59,298 nt of DNA, taken from Gemmatimonadota bacterium (GTDB lineage: Bacteria > Gemmatimonadota > Gemmatimonadetes > Palauibacterales > Palauibacteraceae). Location of the stretch: positions 1 to 59,298 of the forward strand of contig JBDHAC010000019.1 of assembly GCA_039588275.1 (NCBI GenBank), in the 5' to 3' direction. A program made the translations under genes and the position numbers. Position 1 is the stretch's first letter. The number at the start of each line of letters is the position of its first letter. Under the pieces are notes generated by a model. It saw only the letters and a list, made by a program, of their open reading frames with translations. It was not told the origin of the DNA and made no database searches. Below are positions 24,100-51,094 of this stretch, piece by piece.

Positions 24100-25335
24100 A
24101 TGGAAGCTCCGAACGTGGTAGCGAGCGCGAAGTCGCGGCTCGGGATCATGATGTTCCTGCAGTACGCCATCTGGGGTGCGTGGGCGCCCGTGCTGTCATC
24201 GTACCTCATCAACGAAACGGGCTTCAGCGGTGCGCAGGTCGGCTGGATTTACGCGCTACTTCCGCTGGCGACCATCATCTCACCGTTCATCGGCGGGCAG
24301 CTCGCGGACCGCTATCTCTCCTCGGAGAAGCTGATCGGGTTCCTGGCGTTCAGCGGGGGAATCCTGTTGATCGTCGTGTCGCGCGTGACCGACTTCGGCC
24401 TGATGTTCTGGCTGATGCTGGCCTACTGCCTGCTTTACGCGCCCACGCTCGCGCTCACCAACTCGATCGCGATGATCAACCTGACCGACTCCGAGAAGGA
24501 GTTCGGCACGATCCGGGTGTGGGGCACGCTGGGGTGGATCGCGGCGGGCTGGTTGCTCACGGGCTGGCGCTCGCTGGCAGAGGACGCGGTCGCTCCCGCC
24601 GTCGCGGGCGACGCGCTGGTGCTCGCCGGCATCTTTTCGATCGTGATGGGGCTACAGTCGCTCACCCTGCCTCACACGCCTCCGCAGAAGGAAGGCGTCA
24701 AGCCGTGGGCGTTCCTCGAGTCCCTGAAGATGCTGAAGGTGAAGGACTTCGCGATCTTCCTGGGGATCACCTTCGTCGTGGCGACGGAGCTCGAGTTCTA
24801 CTACATCCTGACCGCTCCATTCCTCGAGTCGGATGCGATCGGGGTGTCGAGCGTGAACGTGCCGGCGGTGATGACCATCGCGCAGGTCGCGGAGATCTTC
24901 GTGATGGCGTTCCTGCTGTCGCGTTTCCTGAAGAAGTACGGCATGCGCCGCACGCTGGCCTTCGGTGTCATCGCATGGCCCATACGCTACGTCATCTTCG
25001 CCATCGGCAGCCCGGCCTGGCTGGTGATCGCCTCGCTGGCGCTGCACGGCTTCTGTTACGTGTTCTTCTTCGTGGCCGCGTTCATCTACGTGGACAAGGT
25101 GGCGCCGCCCGACATCCGGGCCTCGGCCCAGAGCCTGATCGCGATTGTGGCTTTGGGGCTCGGGCGATTCCTGGGTAGCCTGTTCGCCGGCACGATCCGC
25201 GACGTGTTCACTACGAGCGCCGGGACGAACTGGACCCTCGTCTTCATCGTGCCGTGCACGCTGACCGTGTTGTGCGCCGTGGCGTTCCTGCTCTTCTTCA
25301 GGGAGGAGGCCGCTCCGGCGGCCGCCGAGGCCTGA
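24100..25335 (+). CDS. MFS transporter, nucleoside:H+ symporter (NupG/YegT-like) family
   Basis: MMFLQYAIWGAW, GQLADRY, IRVWGTLGWI, LPHTPP, LHGFCY, RASAQ. Confidence 0.9.
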   Translation: MEAPNVVASAKSRLGIMMFLQYAIWGAWAPVLSSYLINETGFSGAQVGWIYALLPLATIISPFIGGQLADRYLSSEKLIGFLAFSGGILLIVVSRVTDFGLMFWLMLAYCLLYAPTLALTNSIAMINLTDSEKEFGTIRVWGTLGWIAAGWLLTGWRSLAEDAVAPAVAGDALVLAGIFSIVMGLQSLTLPHTPPQKEGVKPWAFLESLKMLKVKDFAIFLGITFVVATELEFYYILTAPFLESDAIGVSSVNVPAVMTIAQVAEIFVMAFLLSRFLKKYGMRRTLAFGVIAWPIRYVIFAIGSPAWLVIASLALHGFCYVFFFVAAFIYVDKVAPPDIRASAQSLIAIVALGLGRFLGSLFAGTIRDVFTTSAGTNWTLVFIVPCTLTVLCAVAFLLFFREEAAPAAAEA

Positions 25336-25380
25336 TATGAAGGGCCCCTGGCGGGTCGCGGCGCCCGGCCAAATTCCGAG

Positions 25381-26046
25381 TTAGCGATCGAGCGGCCGAA
25401 AGCTCACTTCACGGAAGTACACGACGTCTTCCGGGCCATGGTTCTGCAGCCCGATGAAGCCCTCATCCGGGCGCGGACCTCGCTCCGGTTGCCACTCCTC
25501 CTGTCGTGGCGGCACCCAATCACCCTCGCGGTAATACGTCACCAGCACACCGTTGACCGTGACCACCGTCCGATCGCCGTCCAGAATGATCTCGATCGTG
25601 TTCCACTCTCCTGGTCGAGCCGCTCTGGCCATCGGCCGCGTCAGCGAGTACAGGACGCCCGTCGATTCGTATTCCCTTTCAGTCAGGTCGTCGATCTGGA
25701 CTTCGTAACCGCCGTGCACCGCCATCCACGGATCAGCCGGAGGCTCGGGAATGCGGATGAAGATGCCCGCGTTGCGGCCTTCGGGATTGCGGTACTCCAC
25801 GCGGAGCACACCGTCCCGGATGGGCTCTTCGGTATACCACAAAAGTCCCATGCCACCTTCGGTCTTCAGCACCCCGTCCTCGATGACGAAGCTTCCCGCC
25901 CCCACGTGCTCCCATCCAGTAAGATCCTGACCATTGAAGAGCGGTGTCCACGCCCCCTCTTGCGTGCGTGTCACATCCTGCGCGCGAACACCACCACACG
26001 CCGCCGCCACGACACAGGCCAGCACGATGCTCCTCGCCGTCTTCAT
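25381..26046 (-). CDS. DUF1080 (3-keto-disaccharide hydrolase-like) secreted protein
   Basis: Signal peptide; WTPLFNGQDLTGW, NAGIF, GYEVQIDD, GEWNTIEI, GFIGLQNHG, VYFR. Confidence 0.92.
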   Translation of the reverse strand: MKTARSIVLACVVAAACGGVRAQDVTRTQEGAWTPLFNGQDLTGWEHVGAGSFVIEDGVLKTEGGMGLLWYTEEPIRDGVLRVEYRNPEGRNAGIFIRIPEPPADPWMAVHGGYEVQIDDLTEREYESTGVLYSLTRPMARAARPGEWNTIEIILDGDRTVVTVNGVLVTYYREGDWVPPRQEEWQPERGPRPDEGFIGLQNHGPEDVVYFREVSFRPLDR

Positions 26047-26406
26047 GCTCGATTCTCCAGAATGCGGTGTCCGACTTATCACAGATTCAAGGCCCGTGGG
26101 CGGCCGGGCCACTCGCCGGTTGACCGGCCTTTCCGCGGGGCCTTCCCCGAAACTACGTTCGGGAAGTCAAATTGGCGCGCCGGCGCCTCGCCGGCGCTGA
26201 ATCGGCCCCTGAGCCATGCCTGGGCTGATGGCAACGACTGATCCACCGCGTCGAAGCCTCGATCGTCACACGCCGGCTCGGGTTCGGCGGGCGCTGCCAC
26301 GATCCATGCCGGAGGCGCCGCCCAGCGAGAACGCCGCGCCAATCGCCAGGGTACCCGACCAGCCAAAACGCCCCCGCTTACTACCCCGAGATCGTCGGGG
26401 GAGGAG

Positions 26407-27768
26407 ATGAAGCAGATGTCCAGCCACCTGTCTCGCAGGAGGTTCGTCCAGACCGGAGCGCTAGCGACCGGCGGGCTGTTCGCAGGCAGAGCCGTCGCGC
26501 TCGAGACGGAGGCCTTCGCACCGACGTCGAGACGCGCCGCTCGGAGTGACACCGTGCGCTTCGGGATCATCGGCGTCGGCATGCAGGGCTCAGGCCTGAT
26601 TTCAGACGCCCTCAGCCTCCCGGGGGTCGAGTGCGTGGCTGCCTCGGATCTGTACGATGGCCGTCACACGCTCGCCAGGGAGATGGCCGGCGATGCCAGC
26701 CTGCCGACGACGCGCCGCTATCAAGACCTGCTGGATCGGAGCGACATCGACTGCGTCATCGTTGCCGTGCCCGACCACCAGCACCGACAGATCGTGTTGG
26801 ACGCGATCCAAGCGGGCAAGGACGTCTACTGCGAGAAGCCGATGTCTCACACGGCGTCCGACGGGGTCGAGATGGTCAATGTGGCCAACGCGTCCGACCG
26901 GATCGTGCAGGTGGGATCACAGAGGACCAGCTCCGCCTTGATCGCCAAGGCCCGGGACCTCTATCAGGGCGGAGCCATCGGCGAGGTTTCGATGGTGGAG
27001 CTGTCGCTGGGTCGCAATACGCCCACCGGCGCGTGGCAGTACCCGCCGCCGCTCGATCTGTCACCGTCGAACCTGGACTGGGAGGCCTGGCTGGGAACGG
27101 CCCCGGAGATCCCCTTCAACCCCGAACATTTCGCGCGCTGGCGCTGCTGGAAGGAATACGGCACGGGCGTGGCGGGCGATCTCATGGTTCACCTCATCAG
27201 CGGCATGATGCAGACGCTCGGTTGGAACGAGCCACCGCGGTCCGCACAATCTCTCGGGGGCATCTATCGGTGGAAGGACGGGCGTAACATGCCCGACCTC
27301 CACGCAGTCTTGTTCGACTACGGCGGCGTTCCCGTCTACGTCCGGCTCGGGCTCGGCACGGCCACTCCGGAGCTGGCTCGATACATGGGGCCGAAGGGCA
27401 TCCTCGAAGCGACAGAGGAAACGCTGACGCACTCGCCACAGACCGGCAACGACAGCTACCCGAGCTACTATTCGAACAGCTTTCCCCGGGAGATGAGAGA
27501 GGAGTACCGGGCCGGCTGGCACGCCGAGAACGATCCGACACCGGGCACCGAGCCGGTCCGCGACAGCGCGGCGTACACGGGAAACCACTGGGACGACACG
27601 ATCCCGCACCTGTGGGGTTTCTTCGAGGCCGTGAGGAGCCGCGAGCCCGTCGTTCAGGACGCCGCCTTCGGTAACCACGCCGCCATCGCATGTCACATGG
27701 CGAACGAGTCGTTCTTCCGGGAATCGCCCGTGCGGTGGGACGATCAGTCAGAGGCCATAACGAGCTGA
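26407..27768 (+). CDS. Tat-exported Gfo/Idh/MocA oxidoreductase
   Basis: SRRRFVQ signal; GIIGVGMQG, PDHQH, YCEKPM, QVGSQR, YGTGVAGDLMVH. Confidence 0.93.
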   Translation: MKQMSSHLSRRRFVQTGALATGGLFAGRAVALETEAFAPTSRRAARSDTVRFGIIGVGMQGSGLISDALSLPGVECVAASDLYDGRHTLAREMAGDASLPTTRRYQDLLDRSDIDCVIVAVPDHQHRQIVLDAIQAGKDVYCEKPMSHTASDGVEMVNVANASDRIVQVGSQRTSSALIAKARDLYQGGAIGEVSMVELSLGRNTPTGAWQYPPPLDLSPSNLDWEAWLGTAPEIPFNPEHFARWRCWKEYGTGVAGDLMVHLISGMMQTLGWNEPPRSAQSLGGIYRWKDGRNMPDLHAVLFDYGGVPVYVRLGLGTATPELARYMGPKGILEATEETLTHSPQTGNDSYPSYYSNSFPREMREEYRAGWHAENDPTPGTEPVRDSAAYTGNHWDDTIPHLWGFFEAVRSREPVVQDAAFGNHAAIACHMANESFFRESPVRWDDQSEAITS

Positions 27769-27830
27769 CGGCGGCGATAAGAGTCGGACGCCAACGGAGA
27801 GAAGCCGGACAGATACGGAGAGAGACTGCC

Positions 27831-28916
27831 ATGGGAGCGCGTGTCAGGGTCGGTATCGTCGGCTCGCAGTTCATCTCGAGCATTCACGCCGAAGCCCTTC
27901 AGCAGTGCGCGGCAGCGGAACTGTTCGCCGTGGCCTCGCCCACCGGCCGTCATGCGCAGCGCTTCGCCGAGCAGCATCACATCCCGCACCATCTCACCGA
28001 TTATCGGGCGATGCTCCAGATGGATGAGATCGACATGATCGTCATCGGGGCGCCCAACGACCTGCATTGTTCCATGACTGTCGAGGCGGCGCGAGCAGGC
28101 AAGCATGTCGTGTGCGAGAAACCCCTATGCCTGAATCTGGCCGAAGCCGATCGCATGATAGAGGAATGCCGCAACGCCGGCGTGAAGCTCATGTACGCCG
28201 AGGAGTTGTGCTTCGCACCGAAGTACGTGCGCCTGAAGCAGCTGCTCGACAGCGGTGCGCTCGGGAAGCCGGTCCTGATCAAGCAGTCGGAGAAGCACGA
28301 CGGTCCTCACGCGGATCACTTCTGGGATGTCAACCGATCGGGCGGCGGCGTCACGATGGACATGGGCTGTCACGCGATCGAGTTCTTCCGCTGGATGTTG
28401 GGCCGACCCCTTATCACGTCCGTATACGCGCAGATGGGCACCTACGTGCACGCGGATCGGACCCTGGGCGACGACAACGCCGTGCTGATCCTCGAGTTCG
28501 AGGGTGACGTGTTGGCGGTGGCCGAGGAGAGCTGGAGCAAGCTCGGTGGCATGGACGACCGCGCCGAAGTCCACGGATCCGGGGGCGTCGCATACGCCGA
28601 CCTCCTGCACGGAAATGCCATCGAGACTTACAGTGCGGCCGGCTACGACTACGCCGTCGAGAAGGCGGGCACCACGACGGGCTGGTCGTTCACGATTTAT
28701 GAGGAGGCGTGGAATTACGGCTTCCCGCAGGAGTTCGACCACTTCGTGGCGTGCGTCAGGGACGACCGGCAGCCGCTAGTTACGGGGGAAGACGGACGCG
28801 CGGTGCTCGAGGCCATCTTCGCCGCCTACGAATCTGCGGGCACCGGACGTAAAGTCGAGCTGCCGTTCGAAACGGATGCCGCCAAGCCTCATGACTTGTG
28901 GCACCCCGACGAGTAA
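27831..28916 (+). CDS. Gfo/Idh/MocA oxidoreductase without signal peptide
   Basis: VGIVGS, PNDLH, CEKPL, SGGGVTMDMGCH. Confidence 0.92.
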   Translation: MGARVRVGIVGSQFISSIHAEALQQCAAAELFAVASPTGRHAQRFAEQHHIPHHLTDYRAMLQMDEIDMIVIGAPNDLHCSMTVEAARAGKHVVCEKPLCLNLAEADRMIEECRNAGVKLMYAEELCFAPKYVRLKQLLDSGALGKPVLIKQSEKHDGPHADHFWDVNRSGGGVTMDMGCHAIEFFRWMLGRPLITSVYAQMGTYVHADRTLGDDNAVLILEFEGDVLAVAEESWSKLGGMDDRAEVHGSGGVAYADLLHGNAIETYSAAGYDYAVEKAGTTTGWSFTIYEEAWNYGFPQEFDHFVACVRDDRQPLVTGEDGRAVLEAIFAAYESAGTGRKVELPFETDAAKPHDLWHPDE

Positions 28917-32131: not shown

Positions 32132-34072
32132 ATGAACGAACTGAAAGCCCTCCGGTCCCTCGCCGAAGCGATGGGTGTTCACACCCGCTACACGGATGGC
32201 CTGAAGAGGCGCGTCACGGTGGCTCCCGACACGCTTGTCAGCGTCTGCGCCGCGCTGGGGGCCTCGGTCACCCGCCCCGGCGACGCCGCCGAAGCGCTGC
32301 GAGCCCACCATGCGAGGCAGGATTCGGGGGCTCTTCCGCCGGTCCTCGTCGCCTGGGACGGCTCGCTGCCTTCCCTCGCGATCTCCGCAGATGGCCTCGT
32401 GCACGCAGAGGTGCTTCTCGAAGACGGCGACGTCGCCCCGCTCGAGATTCGGGACGCTCAGCTGCGAGTGACTCGGCCGCTTCCCGTCGGCTACCACCAA
32501 CTCACGGTCGAGTCCTCGGACAGAGCCGAGATGTGCGCGGTCATCTCGGCGCCGGTGCACGCGTGGCATCGCCCGGGGTCACACCGCAGCTGGGGAGTCG
32601 GGGCACAACTCGCCGCTCTGCGCTCGGCTCGCAGCCGCTCGCTGGGCGATCTCCGAGATCTCGAGTCCGTCTGTCGTTGGGTGGGCGAGCGAGGCGGAGA
32701 CCTGGTCCTGGTCCTCCCGCTGCTTCCCACCTTCAATTCGGAGCCGCCGGAGCCCAGCACGTATTCCGCGGTGAGCCGCCTCTTCTGGTCCGAGCTGATC
32801 CTCGAGCTGGGTGCTGTCCACCGTCCGTCGGAGCCTCCCACGACCCTTGATGTGGCCCGGGCGGACGCCGAGGTCCGTGCCGCCCTGGCGGGACGCCCGG
32901 TCCCCGACCCGTCCCTCCTCGACGACGAGTTGATCCGGTACGCGCGTTTCCGCGGTGCCCAGGCAAGGCTCGGCAGGAACTGGCGCGAATGGCCGTCCGG
33001 GGCGCGGACCGGAAGGCTGGGCCCCGACCACATTGATCCGGAAGAGGAGCGTTTCCACCTCGTGGCTCAAACGCAGGTGCGCCGACAGCTCGAGGACCTG
33101 CGAACGCGCCTCGACGATGGAGGGATCCGGCTCGGGCTGGACCTGGCCGTCGGGTCCCACCCAGACGGCTACGATCCGTGGTCGCGACAAACGCTCTTCG
33201 GGGAGGGGGTGTCGGTGGGGGCACCGCCCGACGAGGGTTTCCCGAGCGGTCAGGATTGGGGCTTTCCACCGGTTCTTCCCGAGGCGTCACGCCGCGAGGG
33301 TCACCGGTACCTGGCGGCGACGATCGCCCACCAGGCGGCCATTTCGGGGGTGCTCCGGGTGGATCACATCATGGCTTGGACCCGGCTCTACTGGATTCCG
33401 CACGGGTTCCCGGTACACGAAGGGACGTATGTTTCGTATCCGCACGATGAGCTCTTCGCGATCCTCACGCTGGAATCGAATCGACACCGGTGCGAGGTGG
33501 TGGGCGAGAACCTGGGCAACGTTCCGCCGGAGATCGACAAGGCGCTTCCCAGGCACCGGATCGGGGGGATGTATCTGGCGCAATTCGAGGCGTGGCGAGC
33601 GACGAAGCGTGCGAAGCGCTCGGCAGGTCTGAAGATCGGAGCCCCCAGCGGGGCGGACATGGCTCTCATCGGCACACACGACACCCCACCATTCGCCGGG
33701 TGGCTCGACGGGTCTGATATCGACGAGCGGGTCCACCACGGCCTGTTGCCGCAAGAGGAGGTCCCGAGCGCTCGGGAGGAACGATCGCTCGCCACGCGAT
33801 TACTTGCCGAGCGCCTCAGCAACCGCGTGGACGAGCCAAGGGTCTTTCTGACGGAGCTGCTGGAGTGGCTCGGCCGGTCCGACAGCCCCCTCGTGGTCCC
33901 CTGGTTGGAGGACCTGTGGCTCGAGGAGGTGGGGGTCAACCTACCGGGGACGAGCTCGTCGGAGCGTCCGAACTGGCAGCGTCCCATGCGGAAGCTCCTC
34001 GACGAGATCTTCACGGACCCCGAGGTGGACGAGCTGATCCGACGCCTCAACCTTGCTCGCAAGCCCGGGTGA
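32132..34072 (+). CDS. malQ: 4-alpha-glucanotransferase (amylomaltase, GH77)
   Basis: LDLAVG, GAPPD, GQDWGFPP, LRVDH, GENLG, GTHD, NLPGT, NW. Confidence 0.93.
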   Translation: MNELKALRSLAEAMGVHTRYTDGLKRRVTVAPDTLVSVCAALGASVTRPGDAAEALRAHHARQDSGALPPVLVAWDGSLPSLAISADGLVHAEVLLEDGDVAPLEIRDAQLRVTRPLPVGYHQLTVESSDRAEMCAVISAPVHAWHRPGSHRSWGVGAQLAALRSARSRSLGDLRDLESVCRWVGERGGDLVLVLPLLPTFNSEPPEPSTYSAVSRLFWSELILELGAVHRPSEPPTTLDVARADAEVRAALAGRPVPDPSLLDDELIRYARFRGAQARLGRNWREWPSGARTGRLGPDHIDPEEERFHLVAQTQVRRQLEDLRTRLDDGGIRLGLDLAVGSHPDGYDPWSRQTLFGEGVSVGAPPDEGFPSGQDWGFPPVLPEASRREGHRYLAATIAHQAAISGVLRVDHIMAWTRLYWIPHGFPVHEGTYVSYPHDELFAILTLESNRHRCEVVGENLGNVPPEIDKALPRHRIGGMYLAQFEAWRATKRAKRSAGLKIGAPSGADMALIGTHDTPPFAGWLDGSDIDERVHHGLLPQEEVPSAREERSLATRLLAERLSNRVDEPRVFLTELLEWLGRSDSPLVVPWLEDLWLEEVGVNLPGTSSSERPNWQRPMRKLLDEIFTDPEVDELIRRLNLARKPG

Positions 34073-34104
34073 ACGAGTCCGGGTGAACGAGTCCGAGTGA
34101 ACGA
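34065..34104. repeat. 14-bp tandem repeat x3 spanning the malQ stop codon
   Basis: CCGGGTGAACGAGT CCGGGTGAACGAGT CCGAGTGAACGA. Confidence 0.85.
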
Positions 34105-34140
34105 AAGACCGAGCATCCACTAGAGAGGCCCGAGTTCCCC

Positions 34141-35703
34141 ATGGAATCACACGCTGCCACCGCTGCTGCCGCCCTCCGGCCCAAGCCGCGTCTGTCGTTC
34201 TGGGAAATCTGGAACATGAGCTTCGGCTTCCTCGGCATTCAGTTCGGCTTCGCGCTACAGAACGCGAACGTGAGCCGCATCTTCGAGACCCTGGGCGCCA
34301 GTGTGGAGAACATCCCGATTCTGTGGATCGCCGCTCCCGTCACCGGGCTCCTGGTTCAGCCCATTGTCGGCTACTTTAGCGACCGAACTTGGAACCGCCT
34401 GGGCCGCCGCCGTCCGTACTTCCTCGGGGGGGCCATCCTGGCCTCGCTGGCCCTGATCGCGATGCCGAATTCCCCCGCCCTGTGGATGGCGGCCGGCATG
34501 CTGTGGATCATGGACGCTTCGATCAACATCTCCATGGAGCCGTTCCGCGCCTTCGTGGGGGACAACCTGCCCTCCGAGCAGCGAACCATCGGGTTCGCCA
34601 TGCAGAGCTTCTTCATCGGTACCGGCGCGGTGGTGGCGTCCATGCTCCCGTGGCTCCTCACGGGGCAGTTCGGCGTGAGCAACGAAGCGCCCGAGGGCGT
34701 AATTCCCGACTCGGTACGCCTCTCGTTCTACCTGGGAGCGGCCGTCTTCTTCCTCGCGGTGCTGTGGACGGTCACTAGATCGAAGGAGTACTCCCCCGAG
34801 GAGATGGCCGCCTTCGAGGAGAACCAGGAGCGGGAGGGCTTCGCCAAGGACATACGGACGGCGGAGGAGTACGCGCTCAACGGCAGACGGCAGATCCGCC
34901 TGGGTTGGATCCTCATCCTCGTGGGAACGCTGCTCAGCCTGTGGCTGGCCCGCGAGGAGATCTATCAGGTCATGGTCCTGTCGGCCGGGGTCGGATTCGT
35001 GGGCGTGCTGCTCATCGTCAGCGGGCTCATGCAGCGCGGCGGCCGATACGACAACGGCTTCGTCACCATCCTGAACGACTTCCAGGACATGCCCCACACC
35101 ATGCGGCAGCTGGCCTGGGTGCAGTTCTTCTCGTGGTTCGCCCTCTTCGCCATGTGGATCTACACGACCGCGGCCGTCACCAGCCACATCTACGGCACGT
35201 CCGACACGGCGTCGGTGCTCTACAACGAGGGGGCCAACTGGGTGGGCGTCGCCTTTGCCGCGTACAACGGTGTCGCCGCCCTGGTGGCCTTCGCCATCCC
35301 TGTCCTGGCGAAGAAGACCAGCCGCAGGATCGCCCACGCCCTCTGCCTCGTCTGCGGTGCGGTCGGGCTCCTGTCCATCTTCGTCATCTCGGACCCCCGG
35401 TACCTGCTGGGCTCCATGGTGGGGGTGGGCATCGCCTGGGCGAGCATCCTCTCCATGCCTTACGCGATCCTGACGGGATCCCTGCCTCCTTCGAAGCTGG
35501 GATACTACATGGGCGTGTTCAATTTCTTCATCGTGATCCCGCAGATCGTCGCGGCGGCGATCCTGGGCTTCTTCGTGGGGCGCTTCTTCGGCGGGGAGGC
35601 CATCTACGCCCTCCTCGTCGGCGGCACGTCCCTCGTGCTCGCCGCCGCGCTGACGCTCCGCGTGGAGGACCGGGACGACGTTGCAGCGGCGGTTTCGGGT
35701 TGA
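34141..35703 (+). CDS. MFS sugar transporter, maltose/sucrose (SUC/MalY-like) family
   Basis: IWNMSFGFLGIQFGFALQNAN, GRRRPY, MEPFRAFVGD, VQFFSWFALFAMW, MGVFNFFIVIPQ. Confidence 0.93.
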   Translation: MESHAATAAAALRPKPRLSFWEIWNMSFGFLGIQFGFALQNANVSRIFETLGASVENIPILWIAAPVTGLLVQPIVGYFSDRTWNRLGRRRPYFLGGAILASLALIAMPNSPALWMAAGMLWIMDASINISMEPFRAFVGDNLPSEQRTIGFAMQSFFIGTGAVVASMLPWLLTGQFGVSNEAPEGVIPDSVRLSFYLGAAVFFLAVLWTVTRSKEYSPEEMAAFEENQEREGFAKDIRTAEEYALNGRRQIRLGWILILVGTLLSLWLAREEIYQVMVLSAGVGFVGVLLIVSGLMQRGGRYDNGFVTILNDFQDMPHTMRQLAWVQFFSWFALFAMWIYTTAAVTSHIYGTSDTASVLYNEGANWVGVAFAAYNGVAALVAFAIPVLAKKTSRRIAHALCLVCGAVGLLSIFVISDPRYLLGSMVGVGIAWASILSMPYAILTGSLPPSKLGYYMGVFNFFIVIPQIVAAAILGFFVGRFFGGEAIYALLVGGTSLVLAAALTLRVEDRDDVAAAVSG

Positions 35704-37427
35704 TGTCGAAGCACAAGATCAACTCGAACATGAAGATGGCGATCCGTGCCGTGGCGCTCACGGGCCTCGGCGCTCTCGCCGTTTCAGGGTGCGGCGCCAG
35801 GCGTCCCGGTGCCGGCGTTCCAGGCGCGGACCTGGCGCCCGCCAGAGCCGCGGATGCGGACGTGTTCTGGAACAGCGCCACGGTCTACTTCCTCCTCACC
35901 GATCGCTTCCATAACGGTGATCCCACCAACGACTTGGCTCTCGGCCGCCCCCAGGACGGGGCGGTGCTGCGCAGCTTTCAGGGCGGGGATCTGGCCGGGG
36001 TGCTCCACAAGCTGGAGGAGGGGTATTTCGATGCCCTGGGGGTCGACGCGGTCTGGATGACCCCGTTCGTGGAGCAGATTCACGGGAGCGTAGACGAAGG
36101 GACCGGTAAGACCTACGGATTCCACGGCTATTGGACGCGGGACTGGACGGCGGTCGAGCCGGCGCTGGGTACTGAGGACGACCTGCGCGCTCTGGTCGAC
36201 GCGGCTCACCGGCGCGGCATCCGCGTCCTGATGGACGCGGTGATCAACCACACGGGCCCGGTGACGCCGCTGGATCCCCAATGGCCAGACGATTGGGTTC
36301 GCACGGGCCCACGGTGCGTCTACCGGGATTATGTGACCACGGTGGACTGCACCCTGGTGGACAACCTCCCCGATGTCCTCACCGACCGGGACGATCCCGT
36401 CGAGCTGCCCCAACCGCTGATCGAGAAGTGGGAGCGGGAGGGCCGCCTGGACCAGGAGATCGCCGAGCTCGACGCCTTCTTCGCGCGCACGGCTTACCCG
36501 CGAGCCCCTCGCTACTACATCATGAAGTGGCTCACGGACTGGGTGCGCGAGCTCGGGTTCGACGGCTACCGGGTGGATACGGCCAAGCACTTCGAAGAGG
36601 CGATCAGCGCGGAGCTGAAGGAGCAAGCCGAACGAGCCTTCGCGGACTGGAAGAGGACCCATCCGGACCGGGTCCTGGACGACCTCCCCTTCTACATGAT
36701 GGGCGAGGTCTACAACTACGAGCTGAGCCATGGGCGGGACTTCGACTTCGGGGACCGGACCGTGGACTTCTTCGACTACGGGTACGACGGCCTCATCAAC
36801 TTCGGCTTCAAGAGGGAGGCCGCCGGGTCCCTGGACGATCTGTTCGCGCGATACTCCGCCGCGCTCCGTGGCGGCGCCCTTCGGGGACTCGCGATCCTCA
36901 ACTACGTCAGCTCGCACGACGACGGCTCACCGTACGACCCCGACCGCGAGGATCCCCTGGGCGCCGGCACCCGGCTGCTGCTCGCTCCCGGTGGCGCGCA
37001 GGTCTATTACGGGGACGAGCTGGCCCGGCCACTGAGGGTGCAGGGCGCCGATGGCGACGCCCGCCTTCGCTCCGTCATGGACTGGGAGGACCTGGAGCGC
37101 GGTGGCTCCACAGCCGAGATCCTGACGCATTGGCGGAAACTGGGCCGGTTTCGGCGGGCCCACCCGGCCGTGGGAGCGGGCGAGCACCGGCGGCTCCAGG
37201 CGGACCCGTACATCTTTAGCCGCACCCTCGAGACTGGCGAGCTCATCGATCGCGTGCTCGTGGCAATGGATCAACGTGAAGGCTCGGTGACCATCCCCGT
37301 CTTCGGCGTGTTTCCCGACGGGACCGAGCTGATGGACGCCTATTCGGGGGAGACGGGCACCGTTACGAACGGAGAAATCTCGCTCGTGACGGAATCCGGC
37401 CTGCTTCTCCTGAGTGAGCGGCGGTAG
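35703..37427 (+). CDS. GH13 alpha-amylase lipoprotein
   Basis: TGATG coupling with the MFS gene; lipobox VSGC; FHGYW, DAVINH, GYRVDTAKH, GEV, SSHD. Confidence 0.92.
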   Translation: MSKHKINSNMKMAIRAVALTGLGALAVSGCGARRPGAGVPGADLAPARAADADVFWNSATVYFLLTDRFHNGDPTNDLALGRPQDGAVLRSFQGGDLAGVLHKLEEGYFDALGVDAVWMTPFVEQIHGSVDEGTGKTYGFHGYWTRDWTAVEPALGTEDDLRALVDAAHRRGIRVLMDAVINHTGPVTPLDPQWPDDWVRTGPRCVYRDYVTTVDCTLVDNLPDVLTDRDDPVELPQPLIEKWEREGRLDQEIAELDAFFARTAYPRAPRYYIMKWLTDWVRELGFDGYRVDTAKHFEEAISAELKEQAERAFADWKRTHPDRVLDDLPFYMMGEVYNYELSHGRDFDFGDRTVDFFDYGYDGLINFGFKREAAGSLDDLFARYSAALRGGALRGLAILNYVSSHDDGSPYDPDREDPLGAGTRLLLAPGGAQVYYGDELARPLRVQGADGDARLRSVMDWEDLERGGSTAEILTHWRKLGRFRRAHPAVGAGEHRRLQADPYIFSRTLETGELIDRVLVAMDQREGSVTIPVFGVFPDGTELMDAYSGETGTVTNGEISLVTESGLLLLSERR

Positions 37428-37438
37428 GCATCCGAATC

Positions 37439-39838
37439 ATGAGGGCGTTTCGTGGAACGTCACATCGCGCGGCCCTGCTCGGCGTCGGACTTGTGCTGGG
37501 CTGCGGCGGGAGCGCAGAAGAGGGTGACGACGGGAGTGCTCGGGGGAGCGCAAGGGCTCAGGCGAGTGCACAGGAGGAATCGTTGGAGGCACGTCTTCGG
37601 GCCGAGATCCACGGCCCCACCGCGATCCGATTTACCCTCACGGGCGTCGAGCGGCCCTCCGAACTCTCGGCCTATCGCCTGACCGACGGCCAGGGTCTGG
37701 AGATCACCATCGCGCAGGTCCTGCCCAACACCGCGTCCGAGTCCCTCGTGATCCCGGAGGTCGCTCTGGACCCCATGCGCGTCCATTACCTGGAGATCCC
37801 CCGATTGGGCCTCCGGGCCCTGGTTCGGCGAGACCCGATCTTCCGCAACATGTATTCGCCCAAGCCTCTGGGCGCCTTGGTCGCGGACGACGGTAGCGAG
37901 ACCACCTTCCGCGTCTTCTCCCCCCGCGCGCAGGCGGTGCGGCTGCATCTGTATCGCGACATGAACGACGCGCCCGATGAGGCCCTGCGCGTCGTGGAGA
38001 TGGCGAAAGACGAAGACGGCGTGTGGGAAGCCACCGAGGCCGGAGATCGCGGGGGCACGTGGTACGACTTCACGGTCCACGGGCCCGCCGACCCCGGGAA
38101 CTGGTTCTACGAGACGCACCCCGTACATGTCTCGGATCCCTACGCCCTGGTCAACGACGATGCCCTGGGCAAGTCACGGGTGTGGCGGGACGGGCCTCCT
38201 CCTCCGCCCCTGGAGGGTGGCCGGCCACCCATGGAAGACGTGGTCGCCTACGAGGTGCACGTCCAGGACTTCACCGATCTGCTTCCGGTGGGGGCGGCGG
38301 AAACCGGGACGCTGCCCGCTATGGCCCGAACGGGCCTGGTGAACGCCCACGGGGAGCCCATCGGATTCGACCACCTGGCGGACCTGGGCGTGAACGTGGT
38401 CCACCTCATGCCGGTGCAGGAGTACCTCCACTACCCCGACCCCGATTGGCAAGCCGCTTTCGCGGACGACCCCTTCGCGCAGGCCATGGGGATCGATCGG
38501 GAGAATTACCAGTGGGGGTACCGGACGACCCACGCCTTCGCCGTGGAGAGCCGCTTCCGTTCGCGGGGTGTGGAGCCCGGTGCCGAGCGGGAGCAGTTCA
38601 GGACGCTCGTCCGTGCGCTCCACGAGCGGGGCATCGCCATCATCATCGATGTCGTGCCGAACCACACCGGCGAGAACATGGACGGCCGGCATCTGCTCCT
38701 GAACTTCAACGTCCTGGATCTGCCCTACTACTACCGCACCGACGAAGATCTCGAGCACATCGGTCCGTTCGGGAACGAGGTCAAGTCCGAGGAGCGACCC
38801 ATGGTGCAGCGCTGGATCGTCGACCAGCTCAAGCACTGGGTGGAGGAGTTGGGGGTGGACGGCTTTCGCATCGATCTGGCGGGACAATTGGACGAGCAGA
38901 CCCTTCTCCGGGTCAAGCAGGAGCTCCCGCAGGATCTCATCATCTATGGGGAAGCGTGGATCCCGCCCAGCGATCCCGACGTCCGCTCGAACCCGGATTG
39001 GAGCTGGTACAAGGCCGACGCCCCCATCACCTTCTTCCAGGACGACGCGCGCGACGCCTTCAAGGGCACCCCCTTCGACGTGGACGAGCGGGGGTGGGCC
39101 GGCGGGGATGGCTCCGCCCGGGAGGCGACCATGCGCGGTCTCGCCAACCAGCATGCCGAGGAGCCGAGCGCCACGAAGGGGATCGCCTACCTGGACATCC
39201 ACGACAACTGGGCCCTGGCCGATCGATACGCACTGAACGACGATCACAACGGACTCGATGGCGTGGATCTGGGTGCCGTTCGGATCGCCGCCGGACTCCT
39301 CCTCACCGCGGCCGGTCCCGTAGTGATCCACGGGGGAACGGAGATGCTGCGCTCCAAGGGGCTGGCGCCGCACGAGGAGTTCGAGGTGGAAGCGGCCGGC
39401 GGGACCATCTGGTTCAAGGGCCGGGACGACACCTACAACCTGCGGGCCCCGAACCGCTTCCTGTGGGACAGCCTGGCCCCCGGCTCCGATCACGCGGCCA
39501 TGCGGGACTACTGGCGAGGGCTCCTGGCCTTGCGCATGTCCGAGCACGGCCGGGTCTTCCGCGTCGCCGACGTGCCCGACGGGCACTACGATTGGATCAC
39601 CCCCGATGTGGAGACGCTTCTGGGCTACGTGGTCGGCGAACGGGTCCTCGTCCTGGCCAACAGCGGTTCGCAAGAGGGCCTGTTCCGCTTCGAGCTGCCC
39701 GAGGGCGACTGGCGACAGGTAGGCGGCCCCGGGCGGATCGACCTGGAAGGCGTCGAAGGCGAGTTCGCTCGCCTCGCCGGCGGGGCACAGGAGGTGCCGG
39801 TACCGGCAGGCTCCTTCCTGGTCTGGGTCTCTCGCTGA
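37439..39838 (+). CDS. GH13 pullulanase-like lipoprotein with CBM48
   Basis: Lipobox VLGC; TTFRVFSPRA, YEVHVQDF, YQWGY (YNWGY-like), DVVPNHT, GFRIDLAG, YGEAW, DIHDN. Confidence 0.9.
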   Translation: MRAFRGTSHRAALLGVGLVLGCGGSAEEGDDGSARGSARAQASAQEESLEARLRAEIHGPTAIRFTLTGVERPSELSAYRLTDGQGLEITIAQVLPNTASESLVIPEVALDPMRVHYLEIPRLGLRALVRRDPIFRNMYSPKPLGALVADDGSETTFRVFSPRAQAVRLHLYRDMNDAPDEALRVVEMAKDEDGVWEATEAGDRGGTWYDFTVHGPADPGNWFYETHPVHVSDPYALVNDDALGKSRVWRDGPPPPPLEGGRPPMEDVVAYEVHVQDFTDLLPVGAAETGTLPAMARTGLVNAHGEPIGFDHLADLGVNVVHLMPVQEYLHYPDPDWQAAFADDPFAQAMGIDRENYQWGYRTTHAFAVESRFRSRGVEPGAEREQFRTLVRALHERGIAIIIDVVPNHTGENMDGRHLLLNFNVLDLPYYYRTDEDLEHIGPFGNEVKSEERPMVQRWIVDQLKHWVEELGVDGFRIDLAGQLDEQTLLRVKQELPQDLIIYGEAWIPPSDPDVRSNPDWSWYKADAPITFFQDDARDAFKGTPFDVDERGWAGGDGSAREATMRGLANQHAEEPSATKGIAYLDIHDNWALADRYALNDDHNGLDGVDLGAVRIAAGLLLTAAGPVVIHGGTEMLRSKGLAPHEEFEVEAAGGTIWFKGRDDTYNLRAPNRFLWDSLAPGSDHAAMRDYWRGLLALRMSEHGRVFRVADVPDGHYDWITPDVETLLGYVVGERVLVLANSGSQEGLFRFELPEGDWRQVGGPGRIDLEGVEGEFARLAGGAQEVPVPAGSFLVWVSR

Positions 39839-41321: not shown

Positions 41322-42944
41322 CTACACGATCCGCCGGGCCACCGGATCCCATTCAACCTGCCTCCCGAGCTGGTACGCGCGGGTGGCCATGTGGCACGTA
41401 ATGGCCTCCTGAAACCCCTGCTCGATGTCGCAGCTCGTGCTTCCGCCGTTTCGGATGACATCCAGCCACTCCGCGATGTGCAGGTTGTAGGCGTTCACCC
41501 GCTTGCCACCGCGATACGTGTACAGGAGCCCCCGGCTCGCGAAGTACTGGGCCGTGGCGGATGTGATCGCGTCCACGCCACGGAACCCGGGCTGATACGT
41601 GAACAGGGGCCCCTCCGGGTCGATGAGCCCTTCCTCGATCTGCTCCTTGAACCGGGTGGACGATCCCTCCGCGCTGATCCGGAGTCCCTGGTCCACCTCC
41701 ATCGTGGCGTCGTGCCCCATGAAGATTCGCCCACGCCAGTTCCCGTTCGCCAGTGTGGCGCTGTACACGAGGGTGAGATCGCGATCCGGGTATTCCATCA
41801 CGGCCTGGAACACATCGGGCACATCACGCCCGTCCTTGAAGTAGTAGATGCCGCCCGAAGCCACGCACGTCTTGGGGATCCCAAGCTCCAGGATCTGGTT
41901 CACCGAGTCGTACTCGTGGCTGAACAGGTCTCCCGAGAGCCCGGTCCCGTAGTCGAACCAGCAGCGCCAGCGGAAGAAGCGTTCGGGGGTGAAGGGGTAC
42001 TTGTTGGGCGCGGGGCCCTCGAACTGCTCCCAGTCGATCGTCTCGGGCGTCCCCCGCTCGTCGATGTCCCACACCCAGGCCCCCCACGGGTCGTTCCGGT
42101 TGGTGGTGGTCTCCACGAGGGTGAGCGGACCCAGGATTCCGGCGTCCAGGACCTCTCTGGCTTTGATGTGGCTCTCGGTCTGCCTCTGCTGGTGCCCGAG
42201 CTGGAAGACGATGTCCGAGTTCTTGACGACATCGTACATGCGGTGCGTCTCTTCCTCCTCCCGCGTCATCGCCTTCTCCACATAGATGTGCTTCCCGGCG
42301 GCGACCGCGTCGATGCACATCTGCGAGTGCCAGTGATCGGGTGTGGCGATGATGACCGCGTCCACGTCGTTGCTCTCCAGCAGCTCCGTGTAACGACGGA
42401 AGCGCGTGGCCGGACGTCCGCTGTGCCCGGCCCCGGGGCCCACGCCGTTGGCAGCCGCCACGAGACCCCGTTCGGCGCGCACATCGAACACGTCGCACAC
42501 CGCGGTGAATTCGATGTTCAGCGGGTCCTGCTGCATGAACGTCTCGAGACCCTTGTGACGTGGGTCATCCGCGGCGGCCTGCCGTGCGTCCTCGATCCAC
42601 TCGGGGTGTGCGAAGCCCGCGCTGCGGACGAGGTTTTCTCCCTCACCGCCGAACCCGATGATCCCGAGCCGTATCAACTCCGACGGTGGTCGGCTGATGG
42701 CTTCGGGGATGTAAGCCGGAGCGCCCTCGTCGATCCCGAGCTCGGCCATGATGGCCTCGCGCTTGGCGTCCTGCTCCAGCTTCCTTTGGTACCAGCCCCC
42801 GAAGAACAGCCCGAGGACGGGCACCGAAGCGAGAGCCTTGAGGACATCGCGGCGTGCGATCCCACTCTCCGGGGCTGCGGTCGATTCGCCGGTTTCAGTG
42901 GTGGAATCGGTGACGTCGTTCTGCTTTTCGTCGCTCATCTTCAT
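41322..42944 (-). CDS. Gfo/Idh/MocA oxidoreductase with Tat-like anchor and VDAITSAT motif
   Basis: ARRDVLK plus hydrophobic segment; GIIGFGGEG, ATPDHWH, YVEKAM, QLGHQQR, YGTGLSGDLFSH. Confidence 0.93.
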   Translation of the reverse strand: MKMSDEKQNDVTDSTTETGESTAAPESGIARRDVLKALASVPVLGLFFGGWYQRKLEQDAKREAIMAELGIDEGAPAYIPEAISRPPSELIRLGIIGFGGEGENLVRSAGFAHPEWIEDARQAAADDPRHKGLETFMQQDPLNIEFTAVCDVFDVRAERGLVAAANGVGPGAGHSGRPATRFRRYTELLESNDVDAVIIATPDHWHSQMCIDAVAAGKHIYVEKAMTREEEETHRMYDVVKNSDIVFQLGHQQRQTESHIKAREVLDAGILGPLTLVETTTNRNDPWGAWVWDIDERGTPETIDWEQFEGPAPNKYPFTPERFFRWRCWFDYGTGLSGDLFSHEYDSVNQILELGIPKTCVASGGIYYFKDGRDVPDVFQAVMEYPDRDLTLVYSATLANGNWRGRIFMGHDATMEVDQGLRISAEGSSTRFKEQIEEGLIDPEGPLFTYQPGFRGVDAITSATAQYFASRGLLYTYRGGKRVNAYNLHIAEWLDVIRNGGSTSCDIEQGFQEAITCHMATRAYQLGRQVEWDPVARRIV

Positions 42945-42962
42945 TCTCCGCGCTCGCAGGCC

Positions 42963-43484
42963 CTATGCGACGCTCGTGGCCTGCCGTCTCCGGAATATCA
43001 ATCGATCCAGCCCGACCTGGCGTGAGGTCGGAAAGGCGAAGATGACCAGAAGAGCGGCGAGCTCGACGAGGATCTTGTTCACGATCATGTAGCTCCCCTC
43101 CGTGGGAATCGAGTACTCGAGACCCGGGAAGGGGGGAGCGGCCACGTAGTACAGAAGGAGCATGAGGGCACCGGCCAGCGCAGCGGGCCGCGCGAACGCT
43201 CCGATCAAGAGCGCCAGCCCGACGAGCAGGAGCCCCCATTGGTTCAGGTAGTCCACGACGGTCAGGGCACCCGGACTGGTGGCCAAGGCCAGGAACTGGT
43301 CCTCAAACCAGCCCTGCGACTGTTCCAGGTATCCGGCCGACGTCCAGAAGGGGTTCGTGATCTTGGCCAGCCCTTCGTACATGAAGTGCCAGCCCACCAG
43401 CATCCTGAGACCCACCAGGGCCGTGAGCTGGAACGGTCCGTACTCGGGCGTCCCGGCCACGTCTCCCGTGGCTGCGCTATGCAT
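42963..43484 (-). CDS. DoxX family membrane protein
   Basis: LRMLVGWHFMYEGLAK, WTSAGYL, VGLALLIG, GSYMIVNK, GLDR; 4 TMs; start overlaps the apbE end. Confidence 0.88.
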   Translation of the reverse strand: MHSAATGDVAGTPEYGPFQLTALVGLRMLVGWHFMYEGLAKITNPFWTSAGYLEQSQGWFEDQFLALATSPGALTVVDYLNQWGLLLVGLALLIGAFARPAALAGALMLLLYYVAAPPFPGLEYSIPTEGSYMIVNKILVELAALLVIFAFPTSRQVGLDRLIFRRRQATSVA

Positions 43485-44565
43485 ATAGCCCTGCCTTCGC
43501 TTTCGTGACTTCGGCGACGCTCCGCCAACCATTCGACCTGAGTTGACGGTTCTCCGCGTCGATGATGAGACACGTACAGTCGGGAAGGGAATCAATGAGC
43601 CTCAGTCCCTTCTCCGGGCCCATTACGAATACGGCGGTCGCAAGGGCGTCGGCGGCCACCGCGGTCGGTGCGATGACGGTGACGCTCTGTGACGGCTGAG
43701 GCGAGCTGCCGGTCTGGCCGCTCACGATATGATGACGAGTTCGCTCGCCGTCGAAGTAGATCTCGTAGCTCCCGGAAGTCGCCACCGAGCCCGTGGGCAC
43801 GGCGACCAGATCGGGGAACGTCCCGTCCTTGAGGGGATTCTGGACCGCGACCCGCCAGGGCTCTCCATCCTCCCGTCGCCCCCCCGTCCGGATGTCGCCC
43901 CCGGCGTTGATCAGGTAATCGCGGATCCCCAGCTCCCGGAGACGGCGGGCCATGACATCCACCACGTACCCCTTCGCGATCCCGTCCAGGGTGAGCCCCA
44001 TGCCGCCCTTCTTCAGCGAGATGGCGCGCGAATCGATTCGGACGGCCCGTCCGTCCACCAGCTCGAGCGCCTCGAGGACCTCGACCTCCGTCGGCTGTCG
44101 GGCGGCGGATGGTGGTGGGGCGTCGTTGCCGGTACGGCGCTCCGCCGGGCCGCCTCGAAAAAGATCCACGAGTGGTTGAACCGTAATGTCGAATGCACCC
44201 TTGCTCAGGTCGTGATACTCGCGACCCAGCGAGACCACGGCAGACAGCTCCGGTGGTGGAAGCCGGATCTGGCCCTCGAGACTCAGACAGGAAACGGCTG
44301 AGGCCGGGTCGTAACGATTCAGCAGACCCACCACCCGGTCCATCTCTTCGAAGGCGCGGCCGATGGCCTCGTGCGCCTGGTCGGTGGAAGGATGGATGGC
44401 GGTGATGGATACCAGCGTGCCCATAGAGGGTCGCACGGCCGACGTGCGGAAACGGCCGGCCCTGACAGGATAGGACTCGGTCACGACGGGCGGGCTTTCG
44501 ACCCGCTCGAAGCCCATGTCCTCCAGGGCGGCCAACTTCCGGGCAAGGCGCGCGGTTTCGTCCAC
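43477..44565 (-). CDS. apbE: FAD:protein FMN transferase, no signal peptide
   Basis: MGT, GAFDITVQPL, LDGIAKGY, NAGGDI, ATSGSYE, HHI, ADALAT. Start GTG 44565 (after GGAGGAG) or 44577. Confidence 0.93.
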   Translation of the reverse strand: MDETARLARKLAALEDMGFERVESPPVVTESYPVRAGRFRTSAVRPSMGTLVSITAIHPSTDQAHEAIGRAFEEMDRVVGLLNRYDPASAVSCLSLEGQIRLPPPELSAVVSLGREYHDLSKGAFDITVQPLVDLFRGGPAERRTGNDAPPPSAARQPTEVEVLEALELVDGRAVRIDSRAISLKKGGMGLTLDGIAKGYVVDVMARRLRELGIRDYLINAGGDIRTGGRREDGEPWRVAVQNPLKDGTFPDLVAVPTGSVATSGSYEIYFDGERTRHHIVSGQTGSSPQPSQSVTVIAPTAVAADALATAVFVMGPEKGLRLIDSLPDCTCLIIDAENRQLRSNGWRSVAEVTKAKAGLYA

Positions 44566-49062: not shown

Positions 49063-51094
49063 GTGCTTCGCCGCTGCCGCCGCCTCGTTCTCACGGTGGG
49101 GTGCGCGGCAATGCTCACGTCGTGCAGTGCGAGGGATGCGGCGGACGAGGTCGCGAGAGCGGCAGATCCCGGGACGGAATGGCGCGCCTACGGAGGCGAC
49201 GTCATGGGATCCCGCTATTCGCACCTGGAGGAGATCGACCGCTCCAACGTCCAGCGACTGGTCCCGGCCTGGCGCTACGACACCGGGGAATCCGACCCGG
49301 GCCTCGCCACTCGTGAGGAGCCCACGCTCGAAGCGACCCCCATCGTCGTAGACGGCGTCTTGTACTTCAGCACCCCGCTCGGTCGTGTGATCGCGCTCGA
49401 CGCGGACACCGGTGAGGAGCGGTGGGTCTACGACGCGCGCATCGACCGGTCACAGAGCTACGGCGACTTCACGAGCCGTGGCGTGTCCGTATGGATCGAC
49501 CGGTCTCGCGTGCCGGGGACGGCGGGCGAACCCGGGTCCGGCGTGCGCCTGAGCCCTGCCGGGTCCGTCTGTTCCCGCCGGATCTTCGTCGCGACCATCG
49601 ACGCGAGGCTAATCGCGCTCGATGCGGCCGAGGGCGGGCCCTGTTCGGATTTCGGCGACGGGGGGCAGATCGATCTCCGGCGCGGACTCCGGGTCCCGCC
49701 CTTCGAGTACCCGGCCTACCAGGTCACTTCGCCACCGCTGGTGATAGGCGATCTGGTCGTCACCGGCTCGGCGATCGCGGACAACAGCCGAAGGGCCCCC
49801 GCCAGCGGAGAAGTACGGGCGTTCGACGTCCGAACGGGCCAGCTCCGATGGAGCTGGGATCCGATCCCACAGACCCCCGCCGATCCAGCGTTCGAGACGT
49901 GGGAGGAGGGAAGCCCCACTCTGACCGGGGTCTCGTGTTCGCGCCGACTTCCAGCCCGGCACCGGATTACTACGGGGGTTTCCGAAAAGGAGCCGGTCGC
50001 TACGGGAACTCCATCGTGGCGCTCGACGCCCGAAGCGGCGAGGTGGTGTGGAGTTTTCAGACGGTGCACCACGACCTGTGGGATTACGACAACGCGTCGC
50101 CGTCCGCCCTGGTGACCGTGCGCCGGTCGCCCGACCCGGAGGTGGAGTCTGCCACCGAGGCGGAGATTCCGGCGGTCCTCCAGGCTACGAAGACCGGAAT
50201 GCTGTTCGTGCTTCACCGGGAGACGGGTGAGCCACTTTTCGAGGTGGTGGAACGCCCCGTCCCGGCGAGCGACGTCCCAGGGGAAGAAGCCTGGCCGACC
50301 CAGCCCTTCAGTACGGCAATCGGTCCTCTGAGCCCACACCGCGTGACCGCCCAGGACGCGTTCGGGGTGACGGACGAGGAGCGGGAGGCGTGCCGGGACA
50401 TCATCGGTGGCCTACGAAACGAGGGGGTCTTCACCCCGCCCAGTCTTCAGGGCACTCTCGTGATGCCTTCAAACATCGGTGGGGCGCACTGGGGCGGTCT
50501 GACCTTCGATCCGGTACGTCAGATCGCGGTCATCCCCGTCAATCGGCACGCGGCCATGGTGCAGCTGATCCCGGCGGAAGGGTTCAGCCGGGACAGCGCC
50601 GAGGCGGAATCGGATCGGCTCGGGCTCCGCTACGAGTACAACATCATGGTCGGGACACCGTATGCCATGCGGCGTCGTAGCTTGCGCTCACCCTCGGGCA
50701 TCCCATGCACACCCCCGCCATTTGGCGCCCTGGTCGCAGTTAGCCTGGCCACAGGCGAGCGGCTCTGGGAGTCGCCGCTGGGGCGCATGCCCGCGGGCGA
50801 CTCGGAAACACTGCGGCTGCTGCCCGATAACGCTGGTTCCATCAACCTTGGGGTCCGATCGCGACCGCCGGGGGATTGGTGTTCATCGCGTCGACAGATG
50901 ATCCGGCGCTCAGGGCCTTCGATATAGAGACGGGTGTAGAGCTGTGGAGGGCGGAGTTGCCGGCGATCGGACAGGCCACCCCCATGACCTATCGCGGCCC
51001 AAGCGGCCGGCAGTACGTGGTCATCGCGGCCGCCGGTGGCGGACCGCATGGAGAAGGTGACTACTTGGTCGCCTTCACCCTGCCTCGGAGGTAG
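49063..51094 (+). pseudogene. PQQ-dependent dehydrogenase (glucose/quinate family) lipoprotein broken by an internal deletion and a frameshift
   Basis: Homology runs across three frames: 49063-49929 (EATPIVVDG, SRGVS, VTSPP), 49926-50852 (DYYGG, HHDLWDYD, TQPF, PPPFG), 50852-51094 (ATPMTY, QYVVIAA). Confidence 0.85.

Follow-up and report, generated by a model that had tools for sequence, protein, structure and literature searches.

How does an exported sugar dehydrogenase that keeps hold of its nicotinamide adenine dinucleotide (NAD) pass on its electrons? The question is raised by three genes on a 59,298-nucleotide stretch of DNA from a Gemmatimonadota bacterium (GenBank assembly GCA_039588275.1, contig JBDHAC010000019.1; this whole stretch is called the window below), which encode ApbE (a flavin transferase), DoxX (a small membrane protein) and an oxidoreductase of the Gfo/Idh/MocA family (hereafter Gfo). 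The trio is a real, conserved and apparently undescribed operon in which both ApbE and Gfo have intact catalytic residues. From motif conservation and gene linkage, we consider it probable that Thr464 of the Gfo carries covalent flavin mononucleotide (FMN). The features that carry the argument are the following.

43477..44565, minus strand: apbE, FAD:protein FMN transferase without signal peptide (PF02424, E 3e-70)
42963..43484, minus strand: doxX, four-helix membrane protein (PF07681)
41322..42944, minus strand: Gfo/Idh/MocA oxidoreductase (PF01408) from a subfamily linked to DoxX and akin to the glycoside 3-dehydrogenase AL3
42789..42854, minus strand: twin-arginine motif RRDVLK and hydrophobic helix, a predicted twin-arginine translocation (Tat) signal-anchor with no clear cleavage site
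41553..41573, minus strand: candidate ApbE site D458-A-I-T-S-A-T464 in a C-terminal insert of the Gfo, assigned from motif and conservation

The operon and its candidate flavinylation site

A first-pass annotation of the window had described three co-oriented, tightly packed genes, and this arrangement was confirmed: the end of apbE and the start of doxX share 8 nt (ATGCATAG), and the gap from doxX to the ATG at 42944 is 18 nt. The sequence GVDAITSATAQ is indeed present in the Gfo, with V457 beginning at 41576 and T464 finishing at 41553, and neither of the other two Gfo paralogues of the window (26407 and 27690) has a single match to a relaxed form of the motif. Rnf, Nqr, Nos and FMN_bind families, also said to be missing from the window, were not found among the 28 open reading frames (ORFs) scanned, a subset of all its ORFs; the Rnf-like cluster of this genome, with an apbE of its own, lies on a different contig. 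The Gfo more likely starts at the second ATG (42938), which has GGAG 7 nt upstream, and homologues open with MSDE; the site would therefore be numbered Thr462. No promoter-like site was detected, and no terminator at the end of the operon. The nearest relatives are from Gemmatimonadota, and none was found in the viral contigs searched.

The candidate site reads D-A-[VILM]-[TS]-S-A-[TS] in 121 of 121 sequences (the query plus the 120 homologues nearest to it), with D, A, S and A invariant and T or S at positions 461 and 464, while the surrounding loop positions vary. The motif is thus conserved among homologues, although at an identity of at least 64% this is modest evidence. A relaxed pattern, [DEN]x[VILMF][ST][STAG][AP][ST], was matched by 139 of the 140 family copies in the fetched loci, which had been chosen by a profile of residues 405-540 that includes the site; the sole miss was DSVATAT. 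Among 96 representatives of 50% clusters (at least 380 residues; 54 shorter sequences of the 150 matches were excluded), the relaxed motif occurs in 15, all within the top-scoring group, and is lacking in 81. Two of these 15 have the canonical DAVSGAT in the same alignment column. Since a relaxed pattern has 35 matches in the 4.7 million six-frame residues of the genome, a single match means little, and it is the conservation that counts.

In the structure model, residues 451-462 form a low-confidence coil and T464 opens helix 463-470. This placement fits a flexible arm but equally a helix cap, so that Thr464 may have a structural role. The motif would then cap a helix of the Gfo insert, the enzyme would be a keto-sugar oxidoreductase that works by transhydrogenation, as AL3 and GFOR do, and ApbE would act on a different client or have some flavin-binding function within sugar clusters. 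We consider this alternative quite unlikely. It is favored by the Pro variants among the 140 copies (DAVTTPT in 8, DSVTSPT in 3, DAITSPT in 1) and by seven relatives with a soluble-type signal and a similar insert, which have lost the Asp and by eye retain either T-S-x-T (2) or the final Ser only (5). It also draws on signal-less apbE genes that adjoin motif-less Gfo genes in four loci (L177, 272-2710; L202, 2-2225; L214; L218). A helix cap would leave unexplained, on the other hand, why D458 and T461 are conserved in a low-confidence loop and why the site drifts to the canonical DAVSGAT.

The first-pass annotation had itself raised the objection that Ser stands where the canonical motif has Gly. 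That Ser is real: the query (DAITSAT) does not match the strict Dxx[ST]GA[ST], and Gly at position 5 was found in none of the 140 Gfo copies from the fetched loci. In the motif given by a review, D-x-x-[S/T]-G-A-[S/T], changing Gly to Ala costs about half of the flavinylation and changing Asp to Ala little (PMC12052999; this and all other papers are cited here from the parts available to us). The RnfD protein of the same genome reads DAVTSPT, which aligns with the sites of RnfDs of solved structure, DGVTTAT (7zc6), DTVTTAT (9eri) and DGMTGAT (8ahx). RnfD carries a Thr-linked FMN (PMC12174285), and the aligned Thr is presumably the modified residue. The Ser, Thr and Pro variants of the Gfo family therefore also occur at the site of a known client family, and together with the variants of the DoxX fusions described below this removes most of the weight of the objection. 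The Gfo thus has a relaxed, RnfD-like motif with a conserved acceptor Thr or Ser.

The ApbE of the trio has the described triad (Ser264, His279 and Asp306), invariant in 81 of 81 operon copies, so the Gfo is linked to a catalytically intact apbE, as an ApbE client would be. The 81 operon-adjacent ApbEs form one clade (support 0.85; FastTree, 104 sequences of at least 240 residues), whose sister ApbE adjoins NosZ and an FMN_bind protein. Of 150 Gemmatimonadota genomes, 9 have this close ApbE type, and precisely these 9 have the close Gfo; of 201 Acidobacteriota genomes, 14 have it, all within the 15 that carry the close Gfo. The clade thus occurred in 23 of the 350 genomes sampled, in every case together with this Gfo. 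A dedicated clade is left unexplained by a helix cap, and the trio has no other motif-bearing gene. The second apbE of the genome encodes a twin-arginine protein and terminates the Rnf-like cluster, which has a client with the canonical DMISGAT; the ApbE of the trio is therefore not needed for Rnf. By eye, G000:C54:19421-30356 holds a pyruvate:ferredoxin oxidoreductase-like gene, then rnfC-D-G-E-A-like genes and a twin-arginine apbE, and a separate rnfB was not seen among the ORFs printed for this stretch. Locus L216 has a further signal-less apbE gene. DoxX was also considered as an ApbE client and dropped, its WTSAG lacking the terminal Thr or Ser.

Gene linkage and DoxX-barrel fusions

The strongest support found here comes from a second protein fold, a barrel that is unrelated to the Gfo (L229-L234, P0293-P0413) and has no Pfam or PDB match. 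It is joined, via the same twin-arginine helix, to a DoxX of the same subfamily (36-54% identity). In these fusions the motif directly follows the twin-arginine anchor helix, unlike that of the Gfo in its C-terminal insert. Among 121 aligned members, 118 have the full site, and the final S or T is present in 118 of 118, with 77 canonical motifs and with G, S or T at position 5 in 98, 17 and 3, respectively. In family f10, Glu replaces Asp both in the DoxX-barrel fusions (6 of 6, EA[VI]TSAT) and in the Gfo genes of 10 doxX loci (12 of 12), while three f10 Gfo paralogues away from doxX retain the Asp. Stand-alone barrel paralogues number up to about ten in the f10 genomes, and in six such barrels the motif is absent before the barrel. 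A shared 7-mer that drifts in step in two folds suggests a common reader, either ApbE or DoxX, and is difficult to attribute to the structure of the Gfo. The D-to-E shift comes from one lineage; a helix cap accounts neither for it nor for the parallel motif.

The doxX gene adjoins the Gfo subfamily in four phyla, often within 3-ketoglycoside clusters. It was adjacent in 78 of the 80 best genome loci, both misses being contig ends, and apbE was present in 66 of the 67 best genome loci with at least 1 kb upstream. In the Acidobacteriota loci the counts were 13/13 for doxX and 12/13 for apbE. The linkage of doxX and apbE to the Gfo thus recurs in other genomes, with the apbE adjacency limited to certain lineages, and one DoxX-Gfo fusion was found (P0094). 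Such linkage shows co-inheritance and not the identity of the substrate. In two f10 genomes (L091, L092), the motif-bearing Gfo is tandemly duplicated behind one doxX. In Parabacteroides distasonis (L099:2719-10653), a Gfo-DUF1080-doxX-Gfo operon is divergent from cytochrome bd oxidase genes.

Several observations weigh against reading the trio as a single functional unit with a flavinylated Gfo. Within the fetched stretches, apbE was missing from all 13 f10 loci and was present in 2 of the 12 from Marinisomatota and in 4 of the 16 family loci from metagenomes, and in P. distasonis and Fulvitalea no apbE lies within 9 kb of the Gfo. An apbE is found elsewhere in the genome in all 10 f10 genomes and in 12 of 13 others checked; 90 of 101 Marinisomatota have one anyway, so its presence there is uninformative. 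In Gemmatimonadota, an apbE match was obtained in 21 of 21 genomes with the Gfo versus 62 of 130 without it, a tally of kin rather than independent cases that takes in one unpublished genome (G055), which enters no other claim; the co-occurrence counts in general are among kin. One metagenome-assembled genome of unstated completeness (G234) has a Gfo with the motif, and neither apbE nor doxX was found in it. The Fulvitalea copy retains the motif with this DoxX type not nearby, and in L227 (1441-3424) the neighbor of doxX is a Gfo from a different subfamily, anchored in the membrane, in which the motif is at most a degenerate GYLTSPT. The metagenome sample comprised one of 64 parts, and 16 of its 80 loci hold a full family Gfo. 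Of the 64 loci without the full arm, 4 have doxX, all of them with N-terminal fragments of the family, and in 2 a Gfo lacking the motif adjoins a signal-less apbE. The Bacteroidota evidence consists of two records and a few contigs.

Enzyme, membrane partner and the route of the electrons

The Gfo has the fold expected of its family, with a Rossmann domain carrying GxGxxG and EK motifs and a C-terminal alpha/beta domain. Its top PDB sequence matches were 8tdf and 8tdh (AL3, E 6e-25). It is not an AL3 orthologue, since the identity in the structural alignment is low (about 20%) and AL3-type genes occur beside the subfamily, within the same clusters, as separate paralogues. The active-site Gln, Arg, Asp and His of AL3 map to Q252, R283, D339 and H343, which are conserved in 63, 62, 57 and 64 of 64 sequences, respectively; the mapping was made from the sequence alignment to the published AL3 numbering, in which Tyr349 lies beyond the aligned stretch.

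In the family alignment R31 and R32 of the Gfo are near-invariant and are followed by a hydrophobic peak at 34-50, and tatC is present in the genome; the Gfo is thus predicted to be a Tat-exported, membrane-anchored protein. The query ApbE has no signal peptide, and a hydrophobic N-terminus is absent in 74 of 74 testable operon copies, which would also suit a module facing the cytoplasm, where a tethered Gfo that is not exported would act as an NAD(H)- or sugar-linked quinone oxidoreductase at the inner face of the membrane. The anchor helix of the Gfo, which is short and followed by basic residues, is compatible with this arrangement. It is nonetheless very improbable, as the twin arginines are kept both in the Gfo family and in the barrel fusions (R in 115 or K in 4, then R in 119, of 121 aligned), and the fusions place the pair after four helices and before a fifth. 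Moreover, signal-bearing ApbEs occur inside the clusters of some relatives (L104, L107, L143), and cytosolic ApbEs are already on record (PMC12052999).

The DoxX model (predicted local distance difference test score 91) has long helices at 17-43, 71-94, 98-115 and 137-150. W32, E37, G38, K41, W47 and K137 are invariant in 133 of 133 sequences and H33 is present in 129, and these residues gather on the predicted outer face, the sidedness being taken from the positive-inside rule. The best fold match was the chaperone NACHO/TMEM35A (Z 11.7, root-mean-square deviation 3.6 over 126 aligned residues), and the membrane domain of GGCX was a weak one (Z 6.8), a shared fold that shows no function. No PDB sequence homologue of DoxX was found, Foldseek returned nothing at E<=0.001, and the fold search gave no redox homologue.

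As a mechanism, the signal-less ApbE would attach FMN to Thr464 in the cytoplasm, ahead of Tat export; the absence of a signal on this ApbE and the folding of Tat substrates prior to their export suggest this order. The anchored, exported Gfo would oxidize a glycoside at C3 using bound NAD, the flexible FMN arm would accept hydride from the bound NADH, and DoxX, in the weakest step, would pass the electrons to quinone. Oxidation at C3 is proposed because of the kinship with AL3 and the 3-ketoglycoside neighbors. For menaquinone, the potential is about -74 mV. Together with values of -320 mV for NAD (PMC12174285) and -184 mV for a covalent FMN protein (PMC10339131), it makes the path from NAD through FMN to menaquinone downhill, and DoxD of thiosulfate:quinone oxidoreductase provides the precedent for a quinone link (PMC6335251); a quinone role for DoxX is proposed on these two grounds. 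The chain from sugar through NAD, FMN and DoxX to quinone had been put forward in the first-pass annotation. Motif, linkage and fusion support it and the fold search does not, and we lean slightly toward the full chain.

Alternatively, the Gfo could be flavinylated and DoxX serve as an anchor or assembly partner, with the FMN electrons going to a cytochrome, a second Gfo or oxygen, or with a reverse flow that reduces a periplasmic substrate. We regard this as unlikely, although it gains from the closest solved fold being a non-redox chaperone, from the lack of a sequence homologue of DoxX in the PDB, and from motif-bearing Gfo copies without an adjacent doxX (L093-L095, L100, L102). It is also compatible with the profile search, as the quinone link comes from DoxD (PMC6335251), yet DoxX matched only PF07681 (DoxX) and not DoxD. 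It is harder to reconcile with a motif that follows DoxX across two unrelated folds and with the outer face predicted for DoxX, where polar and aromatic residues are invariant. As for reverse flow, reduction of NAD by quinol is energetically uphill.

Comparison with known systems indicates which elements would be new. AL3 (8tdf, 8tdh) and BT2158 share with the trio the Gfo/Idh/MocA fold, a twin-arginine N-terminus, the active-site Gln/Arg/Asp/His and DUF1080/TIM-barrel neighbors. They differ from the trio Gfo, which has a predicted uncleaved anchor, a motif-bearing C-terminal insert and doxX and apbE partners; AL3, in addition, recycles its NAD on keto-sugar. The ApbE-flavinylated extracytosolic proteins (NqrC/RnfG FMN_bind, NqrB/RnfD, NosR, PceC, DUF2271, DUF3570, flavodoxin_4, FMN_red) resemble it in having an apbE in the operon, a Dxx[ST]xA[ST]-type site ending in Thr and a membrane partner, whereas the candidate client of the trio binds NAD, has Ser for Gly, lacks FMN_bind or any other of these domains, and is paired with an ApbE without a signal. 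In the thiosulfate:quinone oxidoreductase DoxDA, a DoxD-like small membrane protein and an outer catalytic subunit likewise deliver electrons to quinone, but in the trio a sugar enzyme of the NAD type is the partner, the profile matched is that of DoxX alone, and sulfur genes are not nearby. A last comparison is with the respiratory glucoside 3-dehydrogenases LacABC and ThuAB, of which LacA is an FAD (flavin adenine dinucleotide) enzyme of the GMC type. They carry out the net oxidation of glycosides to 3-keto products in the periplasm, the task proposed here for the trio, and they depend on cytochrome c (PMC8121099), whereas the trio holds no cytochrome gene and its proposed carriers are bound NAD, covalent FMN and DoxX. 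The term Gfo is absent from the available main text of three ApbE surveys (PMC8238504, PMC11334425, PMC12052999), and the 5,406 characters of supplement text available for PMC8238504 contain no DoxX or Gfo term, although its gene-cluster tables could list the module. A literature search, with subscription journals outside its scope, returned no work joining flavinylation, ApbE and DoxX, or Gfo, MocA and DoxX. The new elements are thus apparently the class of ApbE client and the dehydrogenase layout, built on known kinds of parts.

Sugar context and implications

DUF1080 or TIM-barrel lyase-type genes, together with further Gfo genes and a symporter, were found in 51/80 and 13/13 loci. The Pfam check of the neighborhood covered 117 neighbors, and the 3-keto gene counts exclude the TIM-barrel matches that a home-made profile gave in f10 loci. 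Among the Bacteroidota-type contigs, L137 has the order SusD-Gfo-DoxX-Gfo(motif)-Gfo-DUF1080-lyase-apbE-tatC. The window has one such cluster.

24100..28916, no strand assigned: 3-ketoglycoside-type cluster (symporter-family transporter, DUF1080, two Gfo paralogues), 12-17 kb from the trio

Its transporter is of the nucleoside:H+ symporter family, and comparable genes flank the trio directly in many relatives; a functional link of this cluster to the trio is inferred. Just downstream of the trio, positions 32132-39838 hold a maltodextrin cluster (GH77, a transporter of the major facilitator superfamily and two alpha-amylase-family genes), which could supply glucosides. By eye, two overlapping ORFs in different frames at 49063-50927 resemble halves of one dehydrogenase of the pyrroloquinoline quinone type, suggesting a frameshift.

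Exported Gfo-type dehydrogenases retain their NAD, and its reduction brings them to a halt. AL3 and BT2158, in which NAD is tightly bound, stall without keto-sugar, and their re-oxidant in vivo was left open in the available part of that work (bioRxiv 2024.03.25.586180). The flavin arm and DoxX would supply a route of re-oxidation, and the module would make net keto-sugar, priming or sustaining the 3-keto pathway, and feed respiration. A tentative proposal, somewhat short of an even chance, is that DoxX and an ApbE-attached FMN arm form a portable adaptor through which exported enzymes that hold NAD and differ in fold become respiratory dehydrogenases linked to quinone, and that in Bacteroidota, Gemmatimonadota, Acidobacteriota and Marinisomatota this adaptor is the way out for electrons that has been missing from the periplasmic 3-ketoglycoside pathway. 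If true, a class of NAD-binding enzymes would join the ApbE clients, the motif used to search for clients would be widened, and a DoxX subfamily would gain a biochemical role. These bacteria, the gut commensal P. distasonis included, would then have a respiratory use for sugar oxidation in the periplasm that needs no cytochrome c.

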